From Vicinamibacteria bacterium (lineage in GTDB: Bacteria > Acidobacteriota > Vicinamibacteria > Fen-336): a DNA stretch of 64,000 nucleotides. The position numbers and the translations under genes were made by a program. Below the pieces are notes generated by a model. It saw nothing but the letters and a program-made list of their open reading frames with translations. It was not told where the DNA came from and made no database searches. The DNA is taken from contig JBGPYB010000002.1 in NCBI GenBank assembly GCA_041493035.1, positions 29,087-93,086 on the forward strand, written 5' to 3'. The first letter of the stretch is position 1. Every line of letters starts with the position of its first letter. Below are positions 3,926 through 32,850 of the stretch, piece after piece.

Positions 3926-4972
3926 GTGAAAGCACGTTCGGAGATCACGCAATTCATCGCTGCTCACATCGCCGAGCAGCAGTCCGGTCTTGCCCGGATG
4001 GTCTCCGAGCGATTCGGAATCAGTCGACAGGCGGCGAATCGAAACATCGCGCGCATGGTGAAGTCTGGGCTCGTTCTTGCCCATGGCAAGACGCGTGGTC
4101 GGCAGTACCGGCTCGCGACCCTGGGTCGGGTGCATGAGACCTTGGCCATCACACCGGAGCTGCAGGAGGATCAGGTCTGGGAGCGCCGTGTGCTACCCCT
4201 GTTGCGCGACGCGCCCGAGAACGTGCGGGACATTTGCAGCTACGGCTTCACCGAGATGGTCAACAACGCGAAGGACCATTCGGGTTCGCCCACGCTACTC
4301 ATCTTGGCCGAGGTCACGGCGGACGGCGTCACGATGGTGGTGAGAGACGAGGGTGTCGGGATTTTCCGCAAGATCAAGGACGCTCTGCACCTGGAGGATG
4401 AGCGCCACGCGATCCTGGAGCTCACCAAGGGGAAGTTCACCACGGACCCGGAACGCCACACGGGCGAAGGCGTCTTCTTCGCGTCACGCATGTTCGACTC
4501 GTTTGGCATAGGGTCCGGGCGACTCGGCCTCCTTCACCGGCGCGACACCCAGGACTTCCTGAGCGAGGACCGGCCGGAACATGCTGGCACGACGGTGGTC
4601 ATGGAGGCAAAGTTCGTTTCACAACATACAGCGAAGGAGGTGTTCGACCGGTACTCGACCGAGCAGGACGACTACGCGTTCCAGCGAACCCGCATCGTGG
4701 TCGCTTTGGCGGAGATCGAAGGCACGAAGCTCGTCTCTCGTTCTCAGGCCAAGCGAATCCTCGCCCGGCTCGATCGGTTCAAGGAGGTGATCCTCGACTT
4801 CAAGCGGGTCGAGAGCGTCGGACCCGCCTTCGCCGACGAGATGTTCCGCGTATACAGGTGTCAGCACCCGCAGGTGAACCTGATCCCGACCGAGGCCAAT
4901 GAAGAAGTGCAGAGGATGATCCGGCGCGCAGAGGCAGCCAGACAAACCATGATTCCCGCCCCGGGCTCTTGA
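3926..4972 (+). CDS. One-component regulator: N-terminal winged HTH + GHKL/HATPase_c (RsbW-like) domain + C-terminal STAS-like DUF4325 domain
   Basis: GTG start. The HTH segment is LARMVSERFGISRQAANRNIARMVKSGLV. The GHKL ATP-binding motifs are NNAKDHSG and VRDEGVGI ... TGEGVFFASR. The C-terminus (LDFKRVESVGPAFADEMFRVY) fits the STAS-like DUF4325 domain. Confidence 0.7.
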   Translation: MKARSEITQFIAAHIAEQQSGLARMVSERFGISRQAANRNIARMVKSGLVLAHGKTRGRQYRLATLGRVHETLAITPELQEDQVWERRVLPLLRDAPENVRDICSYGFTEMVNNAKDHSGSPTLLILAEVTADGVTMVVRDEGVGIFRKIKDALHLEDERHAILELTKGKFTTDPERHTGEGVFFASRMFDSFGIGSGRLGLLHRRDTQDFLSEDRPEHAGTTVVMEAKFVSQHTAKEVFDRYSTEQDDYAFQRTRIVVALAEIEGTKLVSRSQAKRILARLDRFKEVILDFKRVESVGPAFADEMFRVYRCQHPQVNLIPTEANEEVQRMIRRAEAARQTMIPAPGS

Positions 4973-23360: not shown

Positions 23361-24212
23361 ATGAAATGGGAAGGCCGCGAGGAAAGCGACAACGTCGAGG
23401 ACCAGCGCGGGCGGAGCCCTCTTTCGGGGCGCGGTGCGGGCATCGGCTTGGGCGGCCTGCTCCTCGTGATCGTGATCGCGCTCATCACGGGGCGTGACCC
23501 AACCCAGATTCTTCAGCTCCTTCAAGGGACGCAGGGGACGGCCCGGCAGAGCGAGCCTGTTCCGAGGCAGGCCCCGCCCGCGAACGATACCCTCGGACGG
23601 TTCGCGAGTGTCGTCCTGCGCGACACCGAGAACACGTGGGAGGGCGTCTTCACGAAGGCCGGCCGGCGCTACGAACGGCCGAAGATGGTGCTCTTCACGG
23701 GCGCCGTCGATTCGGCCTGTGGCTACACGTCCTCGGCCGTGGGCCCCTTCTACTGTCCCGCCGATCGCAAGGTCTACCTCGACCTGTCCTTCTTCGACGA
23801 GCTCTCCCGCAAGTTCGGAGCGCCGGGGGACTTCGCTCACGCTTACGTGATCGCCCACGAGGTCGGTCATCATGTCCAGAACCTCCTCGGGATTTCAGGC
23901 AAGGTGGACGCCGCCCGGGCGCGCATGGGGGAGCGAGACGCGAACGCTCTCTCGGTCAAGGTCGAGCTTCAGGCCGACTGCCTCGCCGGCGTCTGGGCTC
24001 ACTACGCCGCGGGCAAGCCGGACATGCTCGAGCCCGGCGACCTGGAGGAAGGGCTCCGGGCCGCGGCCGCCATCGGCGACGACCGCCTCCAGCGCCTGAC
24101 CCGAGGGCGCGTGCAGCCCGAGTCCTGGACCCACGGCTCGTCGGCCGACCGCGTCCGCTGGCTCCGGGAGGGAATCAAGACCGGCGATCCGAACACCTGC
24201 AAGACGCTGTAG
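23361..24212 (+). CDS. YpfJ-family neutral zinc metallopeptidase
   Basis: A TM anchor is followed by CGYTSSAVGPFYCPADRKVYLDLSFF, the zinc motif AHEVGHHVQN and LQADCLAGVWA. Confidence 0.85.
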   Translation: MKWEGREESDNVEDQRGRSPLSGRGAGIGLGGLLLVIVIALITGRDPTQILQLLQGTQGTARQSEPVPRQAPPANDTLGRFASVVLRDTENTWEGVFTKAGRRYERPKMVLFTGAVDSACGYTSSAVGPFYCPADRKVYLDLSFFDELSRKFGAPGDFAHAYVIAHEVGHHVQNLLGISGKVDAARARMGERDANALSVKVELQADCLAGVWAHYAAGKPDMLEPGDLEEGLRAAAAIGDDRLQRLTRGRVQPESWTHGSSADRVRWLREGIKTGDPNTCKTL

Positions 24213-24228
24213 GGCCGACCGTCGAACG

Positions 24229-24297
24229 CTACCGGAAGTTCTCGATCATCAACAGGTCGCTGCCCTCGCCGACGACCTTCCCGTAGAGGATCGTTCC
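24229..24297 (-). repeat. Orphan copy A of the 3'-terminal segment of the Ser/Thr-kinase/PD40 gene (gene remnant)
   Basis: About 65 bp are near-identical to 25191-25262 and 28661-28720. The segment encodes ...YGKVVGEGSDLLMIENFR followed by TAG. It is not attached to a kinase body. Confidence 0.55.
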
Positions 24298-24401
24298 GAA
24301 AAGGAGCACCACCGCCTCACGGGTGGCCTTCTCCACGGATTGCTCAGTCTGGTCCAGAAGGGCCCCAAGGTTACGGTTCGCATGCAGGGAAGCGGTAGAA
24401 T

Positions 24402-24725
24402 ATGAGTGCCATGGCAACCGTTCCGGCAGTCCTCTACCCCCACATCTCCAAGAGGCCCGGGGTGTGTGGAGGCAAGGCCTGCATCGACGGAACCCGCATC
24501 CGCGTGATGGACATCGTGGCCCTTCATACCCAGGGCCACACCGTCGAGGAGATGCTCGAACACTTCGAGTCTCGGCCCCTCACCCCGGCCGAGGTCTACA
24601 GCGCGCTGGCCTACTACCACGACCACAAGGACGAGATCGAAGCCTCCTTCGCGGACGAGGAGAGGGCTGACACCGAACACGAAGGCAGGAAAGCCGAGTA
24701 CCTGAAGCGCCGCCCCGGCCAGTAG
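24402..24725 (+). CDS. DUF433-family protein (antitoxin-like partner of DUF5615)
   Basis: The 107-aa product has the DUF433 core KRPGVCGGKACIDGTRIRVMDIV. A TAGAAT box lies immediately upstream. A GTG overlaps the stop of the next gene. Confidence 0.7.
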   Translation: MSAMATVPAVLYPHISKRPGVCGGKACIDGTRIRVMDIVALHTQGHTVEEMLEHFESRPLTPAEVYSALAYYHDHKDEIEASFADEERADTEHEGRKAEYLKRRPGQ

Positions 24726-25090
24726 TGGCGGGACGATTCCCGATCTTCGTCGACGAGAACTCGGCGAAGGGCATCGCAGGAGGACTGATCGAGCGAGGCT
24801 GGGACGTGGTTCGCGGTGTCCGCACCTTGGCCCAAGGAACAGCCGACGAGATCGTGCTCGAGAAAGCCGTTGAACTGAACCGGGTGCTCCTCACTCGAGA
24901 CGTCGACCTCGAGGGGATCGCGGTGCGCTGGCTACAGCAATGGCGCCCCCTTCCCGGCGTGATCTTCTGGCGTCAGGAAGACAGACAGGAGAAGTCCACG
25001 CTCGGTCAGGTCGTGGCGGCCATCGAAGCCCTGGCCTTGGAGGACGAGCCCTTCGCCTACCCGATCGTTTACCTCAGGCCGCGAAAGTAA
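24725..25090 (+). CDS. DUF5615-family (PIN-like) protein, partner of DUF433
   Basis: Its GTG start overlaps the DUF433 stop. The product is 121 aa (FPIFVDENSAKGIAGGLIERGWDVV ... LLTRDVD). Confidence 0.65.
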   Translation: MAGRFPIFVDENSAKGIAGGLIERGWDVVRGVRTLAQGTADEIVLEKAVELNRVLLTRDVDLEGIAVRWLQQWRPLPGVIFWRQEDRQEKSTLGQVVAAIEALALEDEPFAYPIVYLRPRK

Positions 25091-25106
25091 CCAGCCGACC
25101 TCAGAG

Positions 25107-27821
25107 CTAGCACCTCTCGCCGGTACCCGCGTGACGCCGGGCTCCTTCAGCGCCCCCCGGTCCTAGGGCGTGGTCGTGCTGGCCGGAAGGCCACCGGAAG
25201 TTCTCGATCATCATCAGGTCGGAGCCCTCGCCAACCACCTTCCCGTAGCGGATCGTCTTCCCGTCGGGGGAGATGGTGATTCCGGCGATCCAGCCCACCA
25301 GCTTGCCGAGGAGCCGTTCACGGCCGGTGGCCGGATTTCGCAAGAAGAGAGTTGAGTCGTCCCCCCCGCATCCCACGTAGTAGACACCGCCGGAACCAAC
25401 GGCGAAGCTGGAGACGCACTCCACGACCCGCCGCTCCGGGCCTCCCGCGAGGGGCAGTGCAAGGAGCGGCGAAGCCTCCAAGCCTCGCGAGAAGAAAAGT
25501 GTTTGCCCGTCGATCGACTCGCAGGAGAAAAAGCCGCCCCCATGCGTCATGCGTTCCTCCGTGCCTCCCGCCGCGGGTATCCGCCACACTTCCGGAGGGC
25601 CGCCCTCCCGACGCGCGGCAAAGTAGACGGAGCGGCCGTCGCGCGACCAGCTCGGTGAGTTCTCGTCGCCAGGACCCTGCGTCAGCCGGCGAGGCGAGCC
25701 TCCGTCGGCATCGATTGTCCAGATATCCCAGTGCCCGTCCTCGCCCTGGGAATCGAAAGCGATACGGCGGCCGTCCGGCGACCAGAAGGGCGACCCTTGG
25801 ACGAGCCCCGGCCCGCGCGTGAGCTGGGACGGGTTGAAGCCATCGGGGTCGGCGAGCCAGATCTCGTGCTCGTCCCCCGAGCGCTCGGTCTCGAAGGCGA
25901 CCCGCCGTCCGTCCGGCGAGAAGCGGGGGTTGTAGTCCGCGAACGAAGACGCCAGCACGGGCTCGGCCGGGCGCCCCGTCTCGAACCGGTAGATGTCGAC
26001 ATTCGTCAACTCCTGCACGAAAACGAGGCGGTCCCGAGAGGCGGCGGTTGCCGGATGCATCGCATGCAAGCCGGCTAGCTCGATGGGTGTCGGGGGCTCT
26101 TTCCCGTCGATCCCGACGCGCCAGATCCTGCGGATCACAGCATCGACGAAGAGCACGGATTTCCCGTCGCGGGTCCAGGCGAGATCCCCGAACGGATAGA
26201 TAGGCCGCCGGCTGAGCCGCCGGGGCGCTCCCTTCGGCACGAAATCGGCGCTCAGCTCGACGACGTCGACATGGCACGACGCGACGCCGACGCAGGACTG
26301 ATAGGCCAAGTGGCGTCCGTCCGGAGAAAACATGGGGTTGTAGGGTTCGCCGGCTCCTTCTGGAAGGGGAATGGGGCGAGGCTCACCACCCTGCACGGGG
26401 ACAAGGTAGAGACCGTCGGACCGGGACCCGCGCGTCGGCCCCGGCTCGGCGCCGGGGCGGGCGCGCGCCGCGACCAGCCAACGACCGTCGGGAGACCACG
26501 ACGGCCTACCCCCGGCCGTGAGGAAGTCGGCAACCCTGCGGTCGGATCCACCCAGGGGCGAAACAAGCTGGATCGTGCCAGTTGGGTCTGGAAAGCGATA
26601 ACGCACGAAAGCGATCTGCCGTCCGTCGGGAGACCAGCTCGGAGTACCATCGAGTGCGGGATCCGTCGTGAGGCGCCGCACCTCCGGCGACCCGATCATC
26701 TGGATGTAGACGTCGAGGTTGTCCTGCTTCTCGCCATTCCACACGAATGCCACCTGCTCGCCGTCCGGAGACAAGGCCGGAAAGGCCTCGAAGCCGCGCA
26801 TGCTCGTGACCTGTACGACCCGCGGTGGCGGAGGCGGGGGCCGCAGTAGCAGCCACGCTCCCGCGGCCATCGCCAGAAGCCCGGCGAGACCCACCACCAG
26901 CCAGCGCCGACGTTTCGAACGAGCCGGCACTGCCGCCACACGTCTCGATTCCGATTCTTCCTTGATCTGCTCGAGCTCGAGCTTCACGTCCAGCATGTGT
27001 TGGAAGCGCCGCTCCGGCTCCTTCTGCAGGCAACGCTGGACTAGCCGATCCAGCTCCTTCGGCGCGGCCGGCACGACCTCACTCGGCGCCTTCGGTTGGT
27101 CCCTCACGACCGCTGCCAGGGTCTCTGCCGTCGAGCTGCCCGTAAAGGCCCGCCGACCTGTCACCATCTCGTACAGCATCGCCCCGAAGCTGAAGACGTC
27201 GCTGCGGGAGTCGACCTCCTTGCCCATCGCTTGCTCGGGTGACATGTAGCCGGCTGTGCCCGGCACGGTCCCCGGCCGGCTGAGCGGGCCTGCGTCGCCG
27301 TCCTCGCTCACCGTCTCGTGATCCGGGCTCCCCGGCTCAAGTATGACGAGCTTGGCCAGCCCGAAGTCCAGAACCTTCACCACGCCATCGGACCCGATCA
27401 TGACATTGGCCGGCTTCAGGTCGCGGTGGACGATGCCCGCAGCGTGGGCTCGGGCGAGAGCATCGGCGATGGGAATCGCGACCCGCAGGACTTCGCCGAG
27501 GCTCATTTCCTGGCGCGAGATGAGGGTGTCGAGCATCTTGCCCTCGACGTACTCCATGACGATGAAGTCGATGCCGTCCGCCGACTCGATCTCGTGGATC
27601 GTGACGATGTTCGGATGGTTGAGGGCGGAGGCGGCTCGGGTCTCCTGGACGAAGCGGCGGCGGCGGTTCTCGTCCGCCATACGCTCGGAGGGCAGGACCT
27701 TGATTGCGACGACGCGGCCGAGGCGGGTGTCCCGGGCGCGGTAAACCTCTCCCATTCCCCCCGCGCCCAGAAGGGAGAGCACATCGTAAGACCCGAGCTT
27801 CGATCCGAGGGTCAGGGCCAT
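25107..27821 (-). CDS. Membrane Ser/Thr protein kinase with C-terminal PD40/TolB-like beta-propeller
   Basis: Hanks kinase motifs are present (GAGGMGEVYRA, AIKVL, HRDLKPANVMI, DFGLA, GTAGYMSPE). A Pro-rich segment is followed by a TM helix. More than 8 PD40 repeats follow (SPDG ... FVW / SWSPDG ...). The conserved C-terminus ...MMIENFR is extended by 28 codons. Confidence 0.9.
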   Translation of the reverse strand: MALTLGSKLGSYDVLSLLGAGGMGEVYRARDTRLGRVVAIKVLPSERMADENRRRRFVQETRAASALNHPNIVTIHEIESADGIDFIVMEYVEGKMLDTLISRQEMSLGEVLRVAIPIADALARAHAAGIVHRDLKPANVMIGSDGVVKVLDFGLAKLVILEPGSPDHETVSEDGDAGPLSRPGTVPGTAGYMSPEQAMGKEVDSRSDVFSFGAMLYEMVTGRRAFTGSSTAETLAAVVRDQPKAPSEVVPAAPKELDRLVQRCLQKEPERRFQHMLDVKLELEQIKEESESRRVAAVPARSKRRRWLVVGLAGLLAMAAGAWLLLRPPPPPPRVVQVTSMRGFEAFPALSPDGEQVAFVWNGEKQDNLDVYIQMIGSPEVRRLTTDPALDGTPSWSPDGRQIAFVRYRFPDPTGTIQLVSPLGGSDRRVADFLTAGGRPSWSPDGRWLVAARARPGAEPGPTRGSRSDGLYLVPVQGGEPRPIPLPEGAGEPYNPMFSPDGRHLAYQSCVGVASCHVDVVELSADFVPKGAPRRLSRRPIYPFGDLAWTRDGKSVLFVDAVIRRIWRVGIDGKEPPTPIELAGLHAMHPATAASRDRLVFVQELTNVDIYRFETGRPAEPVLASSFADYNPRFSPDGRRVAFETERSGDEHEIWLADPDGFNPSQLTRGPGLVQGSPFWSPDGRRIAFDSQGEDGHWDIWTIDADGGSPRRLTQGPGDENSPSWSRDGRSVYFAARREGGPPEVWRIPAAGGTEERMTHGGGFFSCESIDGQTLFFSRGLEASPLLALPLAGGPERRVVECVSSFAVGSGGVYYVGCGGDDSTLFLRNPATGRERLLGKLVGWIAGITISPDGKTIRYGKVVGEGSDLMMIENFRWPSGQHDHALGPGGAEGARRHAGTGERC

Positions 27822-27901
27822 GGGCTGTTGTGAAGACGCTTGATTGTAAGACAGTCGCGGCTCGTGACACCCAACTCACCGATTCTCCGGTGTGGCGAAA
27901 A

Positions 27902-27914
27902 GGCTATAATAGCC
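27902..27914. promoter_or_regulatory. Palindromic -10 box / operator of the Phd-VapC module (GGCTAT-A-ATAGCC)
   Basis: A 13-bp palindrome contains TATAAT at 27905-27910, 6 nt before the antitoxin GTG. No SD is visible, which fits a leaderless, autoregulated toxin-antitoxin promoter. Confidence 0.45.
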
Positions 27915-27916
27915 TT

Positions 27917-28219
27917 GTGAGAACCGCCACCATATCCGAGACGAAGAACTCGCTCAGCGCCCTCCTGGACCAGGTGCGGCATGGGGAGACAGTTCTCATC
28001 ACGGACCGCCGTCGCCCCATCGCGAGGCTCGAGCCCGTGGCGACCGCCGAGGACGCCGGTCCCGACGAGGGACGCCTGGCGCGCCTGGAACGGGCTGGAG
28101 TGATTCGGCGCGCGCGCCGGGGCCGGCTCGAGGAGATCCTGCGAAGGCCCCCAGTCGTGCCGCAGGCAGGCGGCGACGTCCTCGCCGTCCTGCTCGACGA
28201 GCGTCGTACCGGTCGTTGA
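27917..28219 (+). CDS. Phd/YefM-type antitoxin
   Basis: GTG start. The product carries ISETKNSLSALLDQVRHGETVLITDRRRPIARLEPV. Its stop overlaps the toxin start. Confidence 0.65.
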   Translation: MRTATISETKNSLSALLDQVRHGETVLITDRRRPIARLEPVATAEDAGPDEGRLARLERAGVIRRARRGRLEEILRRPPVVPQAGGDVLAVLLDERRTGR

Positions 28220-28653
28220 GGTTCTGGGACAGCTCCGCCCTCGTCCCTCTCATCGTCCGTCAACGGTCGTCGGTCCGGATGCGAGCTCTGTACCGGTCGG
28301 ACTCCGGCGTCCTCGCCTGGTGGGGCACCCGGGTCGAGTGCGAGTCGGCCCTCTCGCGCCTCGAGCGAGATGGCCTGCTGCTGCCGCGGTCGGCGAGCCG
28401 GGCGCGCGGGCGGCTCGATCGCTTCGCGGCAACCTGGCAAGAGGTGCAGCCGTCCGAGCCCCTCCGCGACGCCGCGCGCCGACTGCTCCGCGTTCACGAT
28501 CTGCGGGCCGCCGACTCCCTTCAACTCGCTGCGGCTGGCGCCGCGTCCGAAGGCCGCCCCATGACTCTGGCCTTCGTCTGCCTCGACGAACGCCTCAGCG
28601 CGGCCGCGGAACGTGAAGGGTTCCCGGTGCTCGGAGGCGTATCGCGCCGCTAG
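28216..28653 (+). CDS. vapC: VapC-type PIN-domain toxin
   Basis: A TTG start overlaps the antitoxin stop. The product carries FWDSSALVPLIV and conserved acidic residues (DSLQLAAA). Confidence 0.7.
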   Translation: MRFWDSSALVPLIVRQRSSVRMRALYRSDSGVLAWWGTRVECESALSRLERDGLLLPRSASRARGRLDRFAATWQEVQPSEPLRDAARRLLRVHDLRAADSLQLAAAGAASEGRPMTLAFVCLDERLSAAAEREGFPVLGGVSRR

Positions 28654-28660
28654 GTCGCCG

Positions 28661-28949
28661 CTACCGGAAGTTCTCGATCAGCATCAGATCGCTGCCCTCG
28701 CCAACCAGCTTCATGGGGAAGCCACGCAATCGATCACCGTTCGCTCCGGACCTCCGGAAACAGGCACCGCCAATAGCGGCGGCTCCGCACCGTTCCCCAA
28801 GAAGAACAGCGCCTTGCCGTCGGCAGCCTCGTACGCGAGATGACCCTCCGCGTGCGGGACGGCCCAGCGCCCAGAAGGGAGAGAACCTCGTAAGGCCCGA
28901 ACTTCGACCCCGGGGCGATCACGTTCGGAGGCCTGGCCGCCTTCTGCAA
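28661..28949 (-). pseudogene. Internally deleted remnant of a paralogous Ser/Thr-kinase/PD40 gene (5' end fused to 3' end)
   Basis: Region 28870-28949 mirrors the kinase 5' end (MQKAARPPNVIAPGSKFGPYEVLSLLGAG, against MALTLGSKLGSYDVLSLLGAG). Region 28711-28860 mirrors the C-terminal propeller segment (KALFFLGNGAEPPLLAVPVSGGPERTVIDCV, against QTLFFSRGLEASPLLALPLAGGPERRVVECV). Region 28661-28720 is repeat copy C with its TAG. The frames are broken. Confidence 0.55.
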
Positions 28950-29005
28950 CCGCCCCCGCCGAGCGCACGAGGAGCGCAGCGCTCGGACAGGCCCTTCGCT
29001 AGTCG

Positions 29006-29425
29006 CTATAGCCGCGCCGCTCGCGCCACGGCATCGAGGAAGAGTCGAAGCGCGGGAAGGCCTGGACGCGACTCCTGGTGTACGCGCCTGTAGTCGACCA
29101 TGGCGTATCCATGGGCGATGCGATTCCGCAGCCCGGTGGCTGCGCGCAAGGCATCGGCCGTTGGGCGGTCGATAACGCCACGATCGGCCAGAACGTCGAA
29201 GGCTGAGCCGGCGTCGTCGGGAGGGGTCCAGCCTTCATCCGCCACCCAGTGGGCCGCGAGATCGATGCACTCTTGGATCGCAAGGAAGACGTAGAAAAGC
29301 GCGAGGTCTCGGCCGCTCCGGTCGGCGACAAAGTCCTCGGGCGGGCGTGCCAGGAGCGCCTCCGCGTCATTCAGCCACGCGTGTGCTCGGGCGATGCGCG
29401 CGGCCGCAACGTCACGGCGTACCAT
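29006..29425 (-). CDS. hepT: HepT-like (DUF86) toxin of a HepT/MNT toxin-antitoxin pair
   Basis: The Rx4HxY motif GLRNRIAHGY is present. The product is 139 aa and overlaps the MNT gene by 14 nt. Confidence 0.8.
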   Translation of the reverse strand: MVRRDVAAARIARAHAWLNDAEALLARPPEDFVADRSGRDLALFYVFLAIQECIDLAAHWVADEGWTPPDDAGSAFDVLADRGVIDRPTADALRAATGLRNRIAHGYAMVDYRRVHQESRPGLPALRLFLDAVARAARL

Positions 29426-29816
29426 GCCCGGCCCCCTCTCGAACGCGTCGCACTGCGGAGGCGTGGAGCCGGCGGGCGAGGGGAGCCCAGTCCCACCAGT
29501 CGAGCATCGCGCGCGCCTTGAAGTCGGCCCAGGAGTGGGGAACCCTCTCGACGAGGGTGCGCCCGTCGCGGGCGATCTCGAAGCGCAGGAGTGGCGGGGC
29601 TTCGTCGAGGAAGACGAGATCGACGTGGCGGCGGGTGGCGCGACTCAAGGCGACCTCGAACGACGCGGCCGGGCGACTGCCCGGTTCGAAAAGAACACCG
29701 ACGTCAAGGTCGCTGGCCTCCTTGCTCGCGCCCCGCGCTGTTGAGCCGAAGAGGACGGCGAGACGGACCCCCGGCGTCGCCTCCAGCACGCCGCGCAGCG
29801 ACTCCTCAGGTGTCAT
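29412..29816 (-). CDS. mnt: MNT-type nucleotidyltransferase antitoxin
   Basis: The nucleotidyltransferase motif reads LAVLFGSTARG ... SDLDVGV. Start at MTPEESLRGV. Confidence 0.8.
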   Translation of the reverse strand: MTPEESLRGVLEATPGVRLAVLFGSTARGASKEASDLDVGVLFEPGSRPAASFEVALSRATRRHVDLVFLDEAPPLLRFEIARDGRTLVERVPHSWADFKARAMLDWWDWAPLARRLHASAVRRVREGAGHGTP

Positions 29817-29889
29817 TTGCTGGCCGATTCTAGCACCGCGCGGAGAGGGGCTCCTGCCGGTTACGAGTTGTCGACCCGCCTCGGCTCGA

Positions 29890-32850
29890 TCAGAAGCCGA
29901 GACGGGCTTGCAACTCGATCCTGCGGTTCCCACCAGCGCCGCCGCCGCTGCCGAAGCCGCCGGCGGTGGAGAGGGACTGGCCGAAGAGCAGCGACGTGAG
30001 GTTGCCCACGGGCGTCGAGGGGTTGACGTGGTTCAGCAGGTTCTGGGCGAAGATGGAGATGGTGAGCCCCTTTCCGCCGCCGCCCTCGTCACCGCGTCCT
30101 CGACCACCGCCGCCGAAGCCCCCCGGTCCCCCGAAGCCGGGGCCGCCCCCCCCAGGGCCACCCGGGCCGCCAGGAGGCGCCGGTGCGGCAAGGCCCTTGC
30201 CGAAGGTGAGGGTCTTGCTGATGCGCAGGTTGACCACCGCGAACCCGGGGCCCACGCCGAGGTTCCTCGGGATGATCGCTTCGCCCGCGACCGGATCCGG
30301 ATCCAGGAGGCCATAAGGCGTCTGAACGACTCCGGGTTTGTCGGGATCGTCGGCGAAGGCCGGCCGATCGGTGAACACGCTGTCGAGGTTCAGATCGCGA
30401 CCGATGGTGATGTTGTAGGGCCGGCCGGTGGAGAGGATGACGAAGGGGCTGATTCGCACACCCCAGGGACCGGTGACGTTGCCTCCCAGGGTCACGCGGT
30501 GTCGCATGTCGTTCCCGGCCCGGCCGTACTCGCCCTTCAGATCGTACTGGTTGGCTGGGAAGCTCGATGAGCCGTCGGTGTCGCTCTTCGCCCAAGAGAG
30601 AAAGTACCGGACAAAGACGGTCAGCTTCTTGCTCAGTCGGTTGTTGATGCCGAGGATCCACTGATACTGGTTGAGGCGCCCGGCCGACTCGACCTGATAG
30701 ACGTCCCCGGCGGCCACGCCGAGGGGACGCGCTCCGTCCGCCAGGGGCGCGTTGATGTTCCGGGAACGGAGCTGCCTCCGTCCCTGAGCGGCGATGAGCG
30801 TCCCCGAGACGGTGAAGTTGCCGGGAAGCTGCCGCTCGAGGCTCAAGGACGATTGGAGCGTGTACGACGCTTGGAGGTCCGGCGCCACGTGCCACGTGGC
30901 CTGCGGGATCGCGAAGGCCTCCAGCTCCTCCACGGACGGCACCCCTGAGACGCTGCCGTCCGCGGCGAACCCGAGCTGGTCGAGGACGGCCGGTTGCATC
31001 ACGACGTACTGAGACGTCGAGACACCGTTGAACCGGTTGGCCCGAAGGGTGAGGTCTTCGCCGAAGCGGTCGTAGAAGATGCCGAAGCCCCCGCGGACGA
31101 CGGTGCGCGCCTGCCCCTGGGCGTTCTTGGGTCCGGCCGACCAGGCGAAGCCGAGACGCGGAGCAAAGTTCAAGTGGCTCTCGATGTTGTCCTGCGTCTC
31201 ATAGCGCAGCCCCGCGCTCACGAGGAGGTCCGGCGTGGCGTGCCAGTCGTCCTGGACGAAGGGGGCCACGTCCCACTGAGTCACCTTCGCGTCGGGGTCT
31301 CCGCCCACGATCTGAAGCTGGCTCGCACCACCTCCCAGGGCACGAATCGCCGCGGGGGAGAGGCCCAGGCCCTGGAGGACGATGGTGCGGCGATAGCGCT
31401 CCATGCTCGTGACGGGGACGAAGACCGGATTGCCGTCGGGGCCCGCGACGAGCTGGTTGTTCGCGTCGAGCTTGGGACCGAACCCCCCGGAGAAGACCAC
31501 GGTCCCGCCGAACCCCTGCCGGGCCAGGTCGTCCACGTCCACGGTGCGAAGGCGAAACCCGGCCCGCAGCGAATGCTTTCCGCTCGCCCACGAAGTCACG
31601 CTCTGCAACTCCCAGCGCCTCTGATCGTTGAAGGAGGGCCCCAGCGGGGATCCGCCCCCCGTGAAAGCGTCCTGGACCTGGAGGGTCGGCACGGAGTCGT
31701 CCCCCTCCCTGGTCTGGCGCTCCTTGAAATAGCGGAGGCGCGTTTCGCTGATCACCTTCCCGTAGACGGCGGTTTCCGTGAGCTGCAACGTGTGCTGCCG
31801 ATCGGTGGTGTCGTAGCCCCGGGACGGGAGGGAGAAGCCCCCTACTCCCGCATCGGTCTGATCCGAGGAGGTGTAGGCGTATCGCGCGACGAGGGTATGG
31901 GAGGGACTGATCTGCCAGTCGATGCGCGGGCTCACCGTCGTCCGGTGCTGGGGCGTGACGACGGACACGGCGAGCGGGACGATCGCCAGGTCCTCGGGTT
32001 CCAGGATGGTGGCGTTGATGAGTTGGTTGTCGTCCACGTCCCGGCGCTCGAAGTCGATGACGAAGGAGGCCTTCTTCGCCACGAGGGGGCCGCTGACGTT
32101 ACCTCCCCATTCCCGGCGCTGATACGGGGGCTTGTTCTGGGCGAAGGGGTTCCGCGAGTTGAGGATGTCGTCATTGAAGCGGTACGAGGTCTCTCCACGC
32201 CACTGGTCGGTTCCGGGCTTGGTGAAGATCTCGATGCGACCGAAGCCGAGCCGGTCGTATTCCGCCGAGAAGGGGTTCGCGTTGATCCGGATCTCGCGGA
32301 TGGACGCCTTCGGAGGCATGCGGCCCCCCGTAAAGCCGTCGATGAACACCTGGCCACCGTTCGGCCCCGCGGCGGGGCCGGCAAGGGCCTGCAGCGCGTC
32401 GGCCATCTCGTCGGGATCGTCGGGAAGGGCGTCGAGGTCGTCGCCTTTGATGGTGATGGCGCCCGCGTTGTTGCTGGGATCGATGCTGAGAGCCGGGGCG
32501 GCGGAGTCGACGTTCACGGTCTCCTCGATCGCCGCGACCGCGAGCTGAATGTCGAGGTCCGTCACGCGGCCAGCCGCCACCGCGATGGCACCGCTGCCGT
32601 AGGCCTCGAATCCCCTCTTCATGACCGTGAGGGCGTAGGTCCCCGGCACCAGGCCGTCCAGTGAGTAGATCCCTTTGCCGTCGGTCCTGGTTGTTTTCGT
32701 CGCCGGTCCTGTCACGGATATTTCGGCCCCCGGCATGACACCGCCCTGAGGATCGGTCACGTGACCACGGATGCCGCCGGTGTTGGACGACTGGGCGAAG
32801 GCACCCGGAGCCGCGAGCAGGGCCACGAGCAACGCTAGAGAGGCCCTCAC
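29890..32850 (-). CDS. TonB-dependent-receptor-like outer-membrane beta-barrel with an N-terminal carboxypeptidase-regulatory-like domain
   Basis: GTG start with a signal peptide (VRASLALLVALLAAPGAFAQ). The CarbopepD_reg-like block reads IRGHVTDPQGGVMPGAEISV ... DGKGIYSLDGLVPGTYAL. A plug/barrel follows. The product is 986 aa, with a Gly-rich insert near the C-terminus. Confidence 0.8.
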   Translation of the reverse strand: MRASLALLVALLAAPGAFAQSSNTGGIRGHVTDPQGGVMPGAEISVTGPATKTTRTDGKGIYSLDGLVPGTYALTVMKRGFEAYGSGAIAVAAGRVTDLDIQLAVAAIEETVNVDSAAPALSIDPSNNAGAITIKGDDLDALPDDPDEMADALQALAGPAAGPNGGQVFIDGFTGGRMPPKASIREIRINANPFSAEYDRLGFGRIEIFTKPGTDQWRGETSYRFNDDILNSRNPFAQNKPPYQRREWGGNVSGPLVAKKASFVIDFERRDVDDNQLINATILEPEDLAIVPLAVSVVTPQHRTTVSPRIDWQISPSHTLVARYAYTSSDQTDAGVGGFSLPSRGYDTTDRQHTLQLTETAVYGKVISETRLRYFKERQTREGDDSVPTLQVQDAFTGGGSPLGPSFNDQRRWELQSVTSWASGKHSLRAGFRLRTVDVDDLARQGFGGTVVFSGGFGPKLDANNQLVAGPDGNPVFVPVTSMERYRRTIVLQGLGLSPAAIRALGGGASQLQIVGGDPDAKVTQWDVAPFVQDDWHATPDLLVSAGLRYETQDNIESHLNFAPRLGFAWSAGPKNAQGQARTVVRGGFGIFYDRFGEDLTLRANRFNGVSTSQYVVMQPAVLDQLGFAADGSVSGVPSVEELEAFAIPQATWHVAPDLQASYTLQSSLSLERQLPGNFTVSGTLIAAQGRRQLRSRNINAPLADGARPLGVAAGDVYQVESAGRLNQYQWILGINNRLSKKLTVFVRYFLSWAKSDTDGSSSFPANQYDLKGEYGRAGNDMRHRVTLGGNVTGPWGVRISPFVILSTGRPYNITIGRDLNLDSVFTDRPAFADDPDKPGVVQTPYGLLDPDPVAGEAIIPRNLGVGPGFAVVNLRISKTLTFGKGLAAPAPPGGPGGPGGGGPGFGGPGGFGGGGRGRGDEGGGGKGLTISIFAQNLLNHVNPSTPVGNLTSLLFGQSLSTAGGFGSGGGAGGNRRIELQARLGF

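Follow-up and report, generated by a model that had tools for sequence, protein, structure and literature searches.

Deletion pseudogenes in bacteria are short, frame-broken fragments of a functional paralogue, with arbitrary endpoints and without a mobile-element signature. Integrative elements such as prophage e14 in icd and the islands in tRNA genes duplicate the 3′ end of their target, and toxin–antitoxin (TA) cassettes are concentrated in variable regions, for example in chromosomal superintegrons; the movement of TA modules is still poorly understood. Here we analysed a stretch of 64,000 nucleotides from a Vicinamibacteria bacterium (contig JBGPYB010000002.1, positions 29,087 to 93,086), hereafter the window, in which the 3′ end of a gene encoding a Ser/Thr kinase with a PD40 propeller recurs three times among TA pairs. 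Acidobacteria carry expanded families of Ser/Thr kinase paralogues, whose members are usually less than 50% identical over their full length and are under purifying selection (Challacombe et al. 2011, PMC3174227). We consider it probable, at about 0.8, that the three copies are the 3′ ends of three paralogous kinase/PD40 genes that once formed a same-strand array and are decaying in a TA-rich variable segment. All coordinates are positions in the 64-kb window, copies A, B and C denote the three kinase 3′ ends, and L-numbers (L084, L119, L134 and so on) denote loci or contigs from other genomes used for comparison.

A 39-nt core of the motif, searched with up to three mismatches, occurred three times and no more (24232, 25194 and 28664; plus strand in each case) and was absent from shuffled sequences, which agrees with the three same-strand copies placed near these positions by an initial annotation of this DNA. 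A repeat search grouped the copies as family D2 over 71 nt, with 89% identity between A and B and 73% between A and C. Because a MAFFT alignment of the three copies with their 300-bp flanks was too noisy, we used anchored gapless comparisons instead, and these, together with tblastn against the kinase that contains copy B (kinase B), set the homologous spans. The kinase-derived features are as follows.

24229–24294, minus strand: copy A, a TAG stop (24229–24231) plus 21 codons, TILYGKVVGEGSDLLMIENFR; probably the 3′ stump of a deleted kinase/PD40 paralogue.
25107–27821, minus strand: kinase B, 904 amino acids, a full-length Ser/Thr kinase with a PD40 propeller (Pfam).
25191–25256, minus strand: copy B, within kinase B; the ancestral stop (25191–25193) is now TGG.
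28661–28711, minus strand: copy C, a TAG stop (28661–28663) plus 16 codons, KLVGEGSDLMLIENFR, matching kinase B residues 861–876 (tblastn).
28717–28854, minus strand: middle piece of pseudogene C, about residues 760–805 of the kinase B propeller (tblastn, 36% identity, E 1e-9).
28863–28949, minus strand: 5′ piece of pseudogene C, GSKFGPYEVLSLLGAG, the kinase N terminus and the start of the glycine-rich loop.

Copy C does not stand alone: together with its middle and 5′ pieces it makes up a pseudogene of 289 bp (28661–28949), and each of the three pieces lies in a reading frame of its own. The 5′ piece is a direct repeat (D3), 85% identical to 27759–27811; its tblastn match to kinase B starts at residue 6, with a reliable stretch of 16 amino acids at about residues 6–21. 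This stretch is all that C retains of the Pkinase domain, and stump A retains none of it. Copy A matches kinase B residues 856–876 at 19 of 21 positions (tblastn), and the anchored comparison found no kinase homology upstream of 24294, beyond the copy.

Kinase B, which had been taken for the only copy attached to an intact kinase, is indeed a full-length gene (Pkinase, E 7.8e-49; PD40, E 4.3e-51, five stretches), but its ancestral TAG stop has been lost to TGG, which adds a 29-residue extension, WPSGQHDHALGPGGAEGARRHAGTGERC (25107–25190). It is the sole read-through among its 120 best homologues. Contigs from two JGI metagenomes (3300053056 and 3300052992) carry this allele too, which indicates that it is real, and the loss of the stop may represent either early pseudogenisation or a tolerated extension. 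Within the gene, a further direct-repeat family, D1 (25743–26780), comprises five 48-nt copies of 60–73% identity at spacings of 138, 306 and 408 nt (mostly multiples of 138); these repeats are the PD40 blade motif (..SPDG..) and could favour internal deletions. The kinase domain (residues ~10–295) matched the PADLOC PD-T4-6 models at E ~1e-87, and also Mad6 (MADS) and PglW-type kinases. These PADLOC matches cover the generic catalytic domain only and come without partner genes, and the NCBIfam scores are far under the cut-offs. PADLOC and NCBIfam scans of the stump open reading frames (ORFs) returned no match.

We then asked how unusual the kinase 3′ end is among homologues. A homologue search with kinase B returned at least 8000 candidates, all with E <= 1e-20, whose named sources were Vicinamibacteria and other Acidobacteriota. 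For the 120 best homologues, ENFR is the ending of 100 and [ED][NGS]F[RQ] that of 116; the remaining four comprise three truncated proteins and the read-through allele of kinase B itself. The family consensus end is ...GSDLMMIENFR-stop, with variants DL(M/L)(M/L)IENFR, and a scan with a degenerate DNA pattern found the DLMMIENFR gene end also in Vicinamibacteria, Bryobacterales and Blastocatellia genomes. In the family alignment, conservation of the last 13 residues is 0.84, against a mean of 0.72. An invariant peptide, encoded in DNA of 67% G+C with strong codon bias, accounts for a near-identical 48 nt across paralogues. The last 48 nt match at 43 positions between A and B, 42 between A and C and 43 between B and C; matches to the kinase of another genome, L119, number 44 of 48 for B and 43 of 48 for A. 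In the 40 nt past the stop codon, every pair shows 8–15 matches, which is the random level. Copies A and B differ at 8 of 66 nt (88% identity) and have a 21-nt identical run in common. Four of the differing nucleotides, in three codons, are synonymous and include a switch between the AGC and TCC codon families for Ser; the remainder comprise two amino-acid replacements, one stop-codon change and one difference just outside the gene. This pattern, with its synonymous sites and Ser codon switch, indicates that both copies diverged as coding sequence. The repeat therefore reflects conservation of the protein, seen through codon bias, and is no DNA site.

Two functional readings of the motif were tried and rejected. 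The secondary structure of the copies, on either strand, was not above that of shuffled controls (z −0.8 to +0.7), and no family in an Rfam scan reached its gathering threshold; the sole weak match, malK-III at 25416–25501, lies outside the copies (21.2 bits against a threshold of 50 bits, E 0.51). With fold z-scores near zero and no Rfam match at threshold, we discarded the idea of an RNA element. We likewise discarded the idea that the stumps are retained as terminators for the convergent genes, because the only terminator-like hairpin in 24000–30000 is outside the copies and the count is below the shuffle expectation. This minus-strand hairpin (24308–24327) lies close to stump A, in the 91-nt spacer between it and TA1, and reads GCCACC-CGTGAGGC-GGTGGT followed by GCTCCTTTTC; hairpins of this kind are not above shuffle expectation in number. 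In the same spacer, a suspected Phd-like remnant (NLGALLDQ...; minus strand, 24295–24380) is a 62-amino-acid ORF without an NCBIfam match.

The copies lie in a segment that differs between relatives. Its borders and other contents, with the identities of neighbouring genes taken from Pfam searches, are listed below.

23361–24212, plus strand: ypfJ-type Zn metallopeptidase gene (Zn_peptidase, E 3.6e-111), the last syntenic gene left of the segment.
24213–29889: variable segment between ypfJ and a CarboxypepD_reg outer-membrane-protein gene, with blastn synteny breakpoints at 24212–24215 and 29890–29892.
24295–24385: spacer of 91 nt from stump A to TA1, homologous neither to the kinase nor to the spacer of L134.
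24386–25092, plus strand: TA1, a −10-like box GGTAGAAT, a DUF433 antitoxin-like gene (24402–24725) and a DUF5615/PIN-like (PIN_10) toxin gene (24725–25090).
27920–28653, plus strand: TA2, a Phd/YefM antitoxin gene (27920–28219) and a PIN/VapC toxin gene (28216–28653), divergent from kinase B and convergent with C.
29006–29819, minus strand: TA3, an MNT nucleotidyltransferase gene (29412–29819) and a HepT RNase gene (29006–29425), upstream of and co-directional with C.

GH3 is also among the Pfam-confirmed neighbouring genes. In five loci (L119, L129, L130, L132 and L133), homology to the window extends as far as the stop codon of ypfJ and picks up again at that of the outer-membrane-protein gene. 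L119, found through a motif scan of GTDB genomes, is syntenic, with GH3 and ypfJ at 88% identity; the other close orthologous loci came from a protein search with ypfJ, and a metagenome scan with the ypfJ protein yielded only relatives of at most 65% identity, with no linked kinase. What fills the gap differs from locus to locus. In L129 (10853–13214), it holds NAD kinase, NmrA and Rrf2 genes and no kinase-PD40 gene; in L132 (1807 onward) and L119 (6826 onward), an NAD kinase gene is followed by a full convergent kinase-PD40 gene; in L130 (4129–5583), ypfJ is followed after 41 nt by a kinase 3′ stump of 72 codons and then by HTH_3 and NmrA genes. These differing contents identify 24213–29889 as a variable segment. 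The L130 stump and the L119 kinase are orthologous, with 63 of 87 nt matching beyond the motif, and a kinase stump beside ypfJ appears to be a decay state that has arisen repeatedly from a gene found intact in some relatives. At 4170–4630 of L130, the stump abuts a short HigA-like HTH_3 gene that is apparently 5′-truncated and lacks a HigB partner, which suggests that a single deletion took the kinase body together with part of a TA module.

Tandem organisation and graded truncation are both found elsewhere in the family. Same-strand tandem kinase arrays occur in L108 and L112, each with two ends 3.7–3.8 kb apart. The 3′ stumps, in eight cases, measure 16–17, 21, ~30, 49, 50, 65, 72 and 147 codons, and such different lengths argue for arbitrary deletion endpoints and no fixed site; the survey was ascertained through the 3′ motif and is biased to 3′ pieces, and 5′ pieces also survive (C, L084 and L134). 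Internally deleted kinase-PD40 genes with an ENFR end were also seen in other Acidobacteriota, at L084 3131–5878, L089 2492–4355, L109 1093–2535 and L106 95–452.

As the initial annotation had noted, each copy lies close to the end of a convergent unit; the measured distances are 16 nt from the ypfJ stop to A, 100 nt from the DUF5615 stop to B and 7 nt from the VapC stop to C, and Pfam confirmed the gene identities. The DUF433/DUF5615 and Phd/VapC pairs had been recognised earlier, and the HepT/MNT pair (29006–29819) had not been listed. Support for TA2 comes from PhdYeFM (E 9.7e-8), a weak PIN match (E 0.007, Pfam) and NCBIfam phd_fam, and for TA3 from HepT-like (E 3e-23) and Polbeta/NTP_transf_2. 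The ORFs overlap by 1 nt in DUF433+DUF5615, 4 nt in PhdYeFM+PIN and 14 nt in MNT+HepT. Judged from domain content and gene order, the three unrelated pairs have the layout of type II TA systems, with adjacent small ORFs carrying antitoxin- and toxin-family domains; PADLOC gave no match for the TA proteins of the window in the PADLOC/NCBIfam scans. Three pairs in 5.7 kb compare with at most one candidate in the other 58 kb of the window. The only TA-like candidate outside the variable segment is a DUF4160 ORF at 772–975 (Pfam E 6e-19), a family often found in TA-like pairs.

Tracing homologues of the DUF5615 toxin led to seven other contexts, and in these the homology to the window is confined to 24386–25102, that is, to a −10-like box, GGCGGTAGAAT, and the two ORFs, with unrelated flanks. 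The box stands 0–13 nt before the start codon in all DUF433/DUF5615 homologues (24386–24411; L134–L142), and nothing is shared further upstream. This arrangement suggests that the TA1 transcript may be leaderless or have a very short leader, and that TA1 may be a compact cassette that relocates without recognisable ends. Five of the contexts (L135, L136, L139, L140 and L142) have no kinase and no ENFR end near the TA1 homologue; in L137/L138, the homologue follows a distant kinase-PD40 gene without the motif. A TA1 module together with an ENFR end was found only in the window and in L134 among the contexts examined.

L134 holds the closest relative of TA1 (89% nucleotide identity), and there the module is flanked by two kinase-type genes. 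One of them is a mini-kinase in which both the 3′ end (~150 nt) and the 5′ end (67 nt) are retained; the other, a second PD40 gene that is frameshifted, ends in SDLMLVEDFR. HepT/MNT, at 75% identity, and a B-like kinase 5′ end, at 85%, lie to the left. This layout shows that TA1 occupies the gap separating two distinct kinase genes, one oriented divergently to it and the other convergently, and was not inserted in the end of one gene. Neither the spacer between A and TA1 nor that between TA1 and B has a counterpart in L134. The order of modules in this related organism (L134 1–3843: B-like kinase 5′ end, HepT/MNT, mini-kinase, DUF433/DUF5615, PD40 gene) differs from that in the window.

We next asked whether TA modules are drawn to the kinase end. 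For 43 ENFR stop codons from other genomes, Pfam searches of the 1.3 kb that follow identified, as TA-like genes, one PhdYeFM antitoxin (L084) and one HTH_3 (L109), the rest being miscellaneous housekeeping genes; blastp of the six TA proteins of the window against the ORFs downstream of these 43 ends gave no matches. Both the L084 and the L109 ends belong to internally deleted kinases, which retain residues 9–114 and 847–876 (L084) and residues 21–307 and 730–876 (L109). By eye, the ORFs downstream of the L084 kinase include a ParE-like toxin, paired with the Phd, and a BrnT/BrnA pair, and the orphan end of L089 (49 codons) abuts a gene that likewise reads as an AAA-type ATPase. The initial annotation had proposed, as one of two explanations, that TA cassettes target or recombine at the conserved gene end. 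The results do not support this: the C terminus is family-wide, the copies have no excess similarity, their similarity ends at the stop codon, only one or two of the 43 other ENFR ends have a TA-like gene, and the five TA1 contexts lack the motif and common flanks. Essentially, the motif ends every paralogue without enrichment beside TA genes, the pattern that had been set in advance as telling against targeting.

The other explanation offered, decay of a tandem kinase array, is supported by the three-piece pseudogene C, stump A, the full kinases of L119 and L132, the L130 stump and the arrays of L108 and L112. The process would be birth-and-death evolution of a kinase-PD40 array inside a gene-turnover hotspot. 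Tandem kinase-PD40 genes, as they stand intact in L108 and L112, would have acquired TA pairs in their spacers, and deletions with arbitrary endpoints would then have removed the gene bodies, leaving 21 codons of A and ~290 bp of C. We infer this order of events, and also that deletion, rather than non-duplication, made stump A. The stumps would be recognisable because what is left of them counts among the stretches of the gene with the most invariant codons, and kinase B, its stop lost, may itself be on its way out. The TA pairs would not recognise the motif; small accessory modules would simply accumulate in the hotspot.

Several observations weigh against this history or loosen it. An intact A or C beside B was not found in any close relative, so that the history of the array is a reconstruction, and A, at only 66 nt, is too short to be assigned to the L119/L130 kinase or to a B-like paralogue. 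The rare variant KVVGEGS is present in A, B and the L134 stump, and 3 of the 120 best homologues carry it; this sharing hints at a closer kinship, or at gene conversion, than descent from any paralogue would imply. A TA-like neighbour was found at two of four truncated kinases and none of 39 intact kinases in other genomes, for which the hypergeometric p is ~0.007, a post hoc value that counts HTH_3, an unproven antitoxin. Some link between TA genes and decaying kinases exists, and we read it as co-residence in variable regions.

Copies A and B share YGKVVGEGSDL, a combination absent from all 120 best homologues, as might be expected if a recent local duplication or gene conversion had carried the 3′ end of B to A and C and the stumps had never been separate genes. 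We regard this as very unlikely, as eight differences in 66 nt, including a Ser codon switch that takes two steps, separate A from B, and L130 and L134 have independent, longer stumps derived from complete genes. For C it is contradicted, because C has its own 5′ and middle pieces, the latter only 36% identical to B. Less credible still is site-specific integration at the kinase 3′ end, with A/B and C as attL/attR-like sites of non-autonomous TA elements mobilised in trans. An orphan 3′-end copy does lie at the far side of an insert from a gene-attached copy, but ORF accounting confirmed the earlier remark that there is no integrase: in 24213–29889 no integrase or transposase ORF was found, all ORFs being kinase pieces or TA genes (the wider window was not exhaustively screened), and there is no tRNA gene in the window. 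Moreover, the similarity does not extend past the stop codon, the copies differ in the manner of coding sequence, the three TA modules are unrelated and lack common flanks, the TA1 homologues share only the −10 box and two ORFs, and the copies have neither structure above shuffles nor an Rfam match at threshold. The integration reading is largely refuted.

Recombination between the coding ends themselves deserves somewhat more attention, although we consider it improbable. Recombining ENFR ends could excise a circle of motif and TA module, and Campbell-style reinsertion at another kinase end would produce the order motif–TA–motif. A and B are direct repeats that flank TA1 and contain the 21-nt identical run; the closest TA1 relative, in L134, again lies between same-strand kinase-type ends, with a different right-hand kinase and reordered modules; and the kinase-attached copy B has a defective stop, whereas the orphan A beside ypfJ keeps a proper one. 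However, 88% identity over 66 nt makes A and B a poor RecA substrate, and this identity is no higher than that to the kinases of other genomes; the A–TA1 and TA1–B spacers have no L134 counterpart; five TA1 contexts have no ENFR end; stump lengths range over 16–147 codons; and 41–42 of the 43 other ENFR ends have no TA gene downstream. The reordered modules in L134 are the sole observation that keeps this model alive. A broader version, which we also hold to be unlikely, is that recombination uses kinase arrays as scaffolds, with the short homology of their near-identical coding ends, 5′ and 3′, allowing TA modules in the spacers to be excised, swapped and reinserted between arrays. It would explain why the same DUF433/DUF5615 and HepT/MNT modules lie between different kinases, in different order, in the window and in L134, and why TA-like genes occur beside truncated and not intact kinases. 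If paralogue ends did serve as homology arms in this way, they would provide an integrase-free route for TA mobility.

Under decay of a paralogue array, the reading that we prefer, an invariant protein terminus and codon bias in a large paralogue family can fully produce an apparent repeated DNA motif. For annotation, 24229–24294 and 28661–28949 are best recorded as fragments of pseudogenes, and the entry for kinase B should note the loss of its stop codon. The locus is also an example, in a Vicinamibacteria-like lineage, of a gene-turnover hotspot bounded by ypfJ and the outer-membrane-protein gene, and it brings out an unusually conserved C-terminal signature, DLMMIENFR.

Nothing here is a new kind of system; ordinary gene decay, kinase expansion and TA-rich regions are already known. 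Similar to the families described in PMC3174227, the kinases of this locus belong to a large paralogous family, with kinase B combining a Pkinase domain and a PD40/TolB-like propeller; the invariant DLMMIENFR end, arrays decaying to stumps and TA modules between members come from the present analysis and are not part of that description. As in other TA-rich variable regions, several unrelated type II pairs lie within a few kilobases and the content differs between close relatives. Unlike superintegrons, the repeat copies have no attC-type structure, the segment has no intI and no cassette-array organisation, and the modules sit between chromosomal paralogues with a −10 box of their own. The locus resembles elements that duplicate a target 3′ end in having a gene-attached and an orphan copy, in direct orientation, around accessory genes. 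It differs from them in that the segment has no integrase, the similarity is restricted to coding sequence and is no higher than between genomes, and the insert boundaries are not conserved; in contrast to e14-type elements, the orphan copy would come from a separate gene, as in L130 and L134. The fragments also resemble deletion pseudogenes, but they are conspicuous here because what has been kept is the stretch with the most invariant codons in a huge family, and it thereby mimics a repeated DNA motif.

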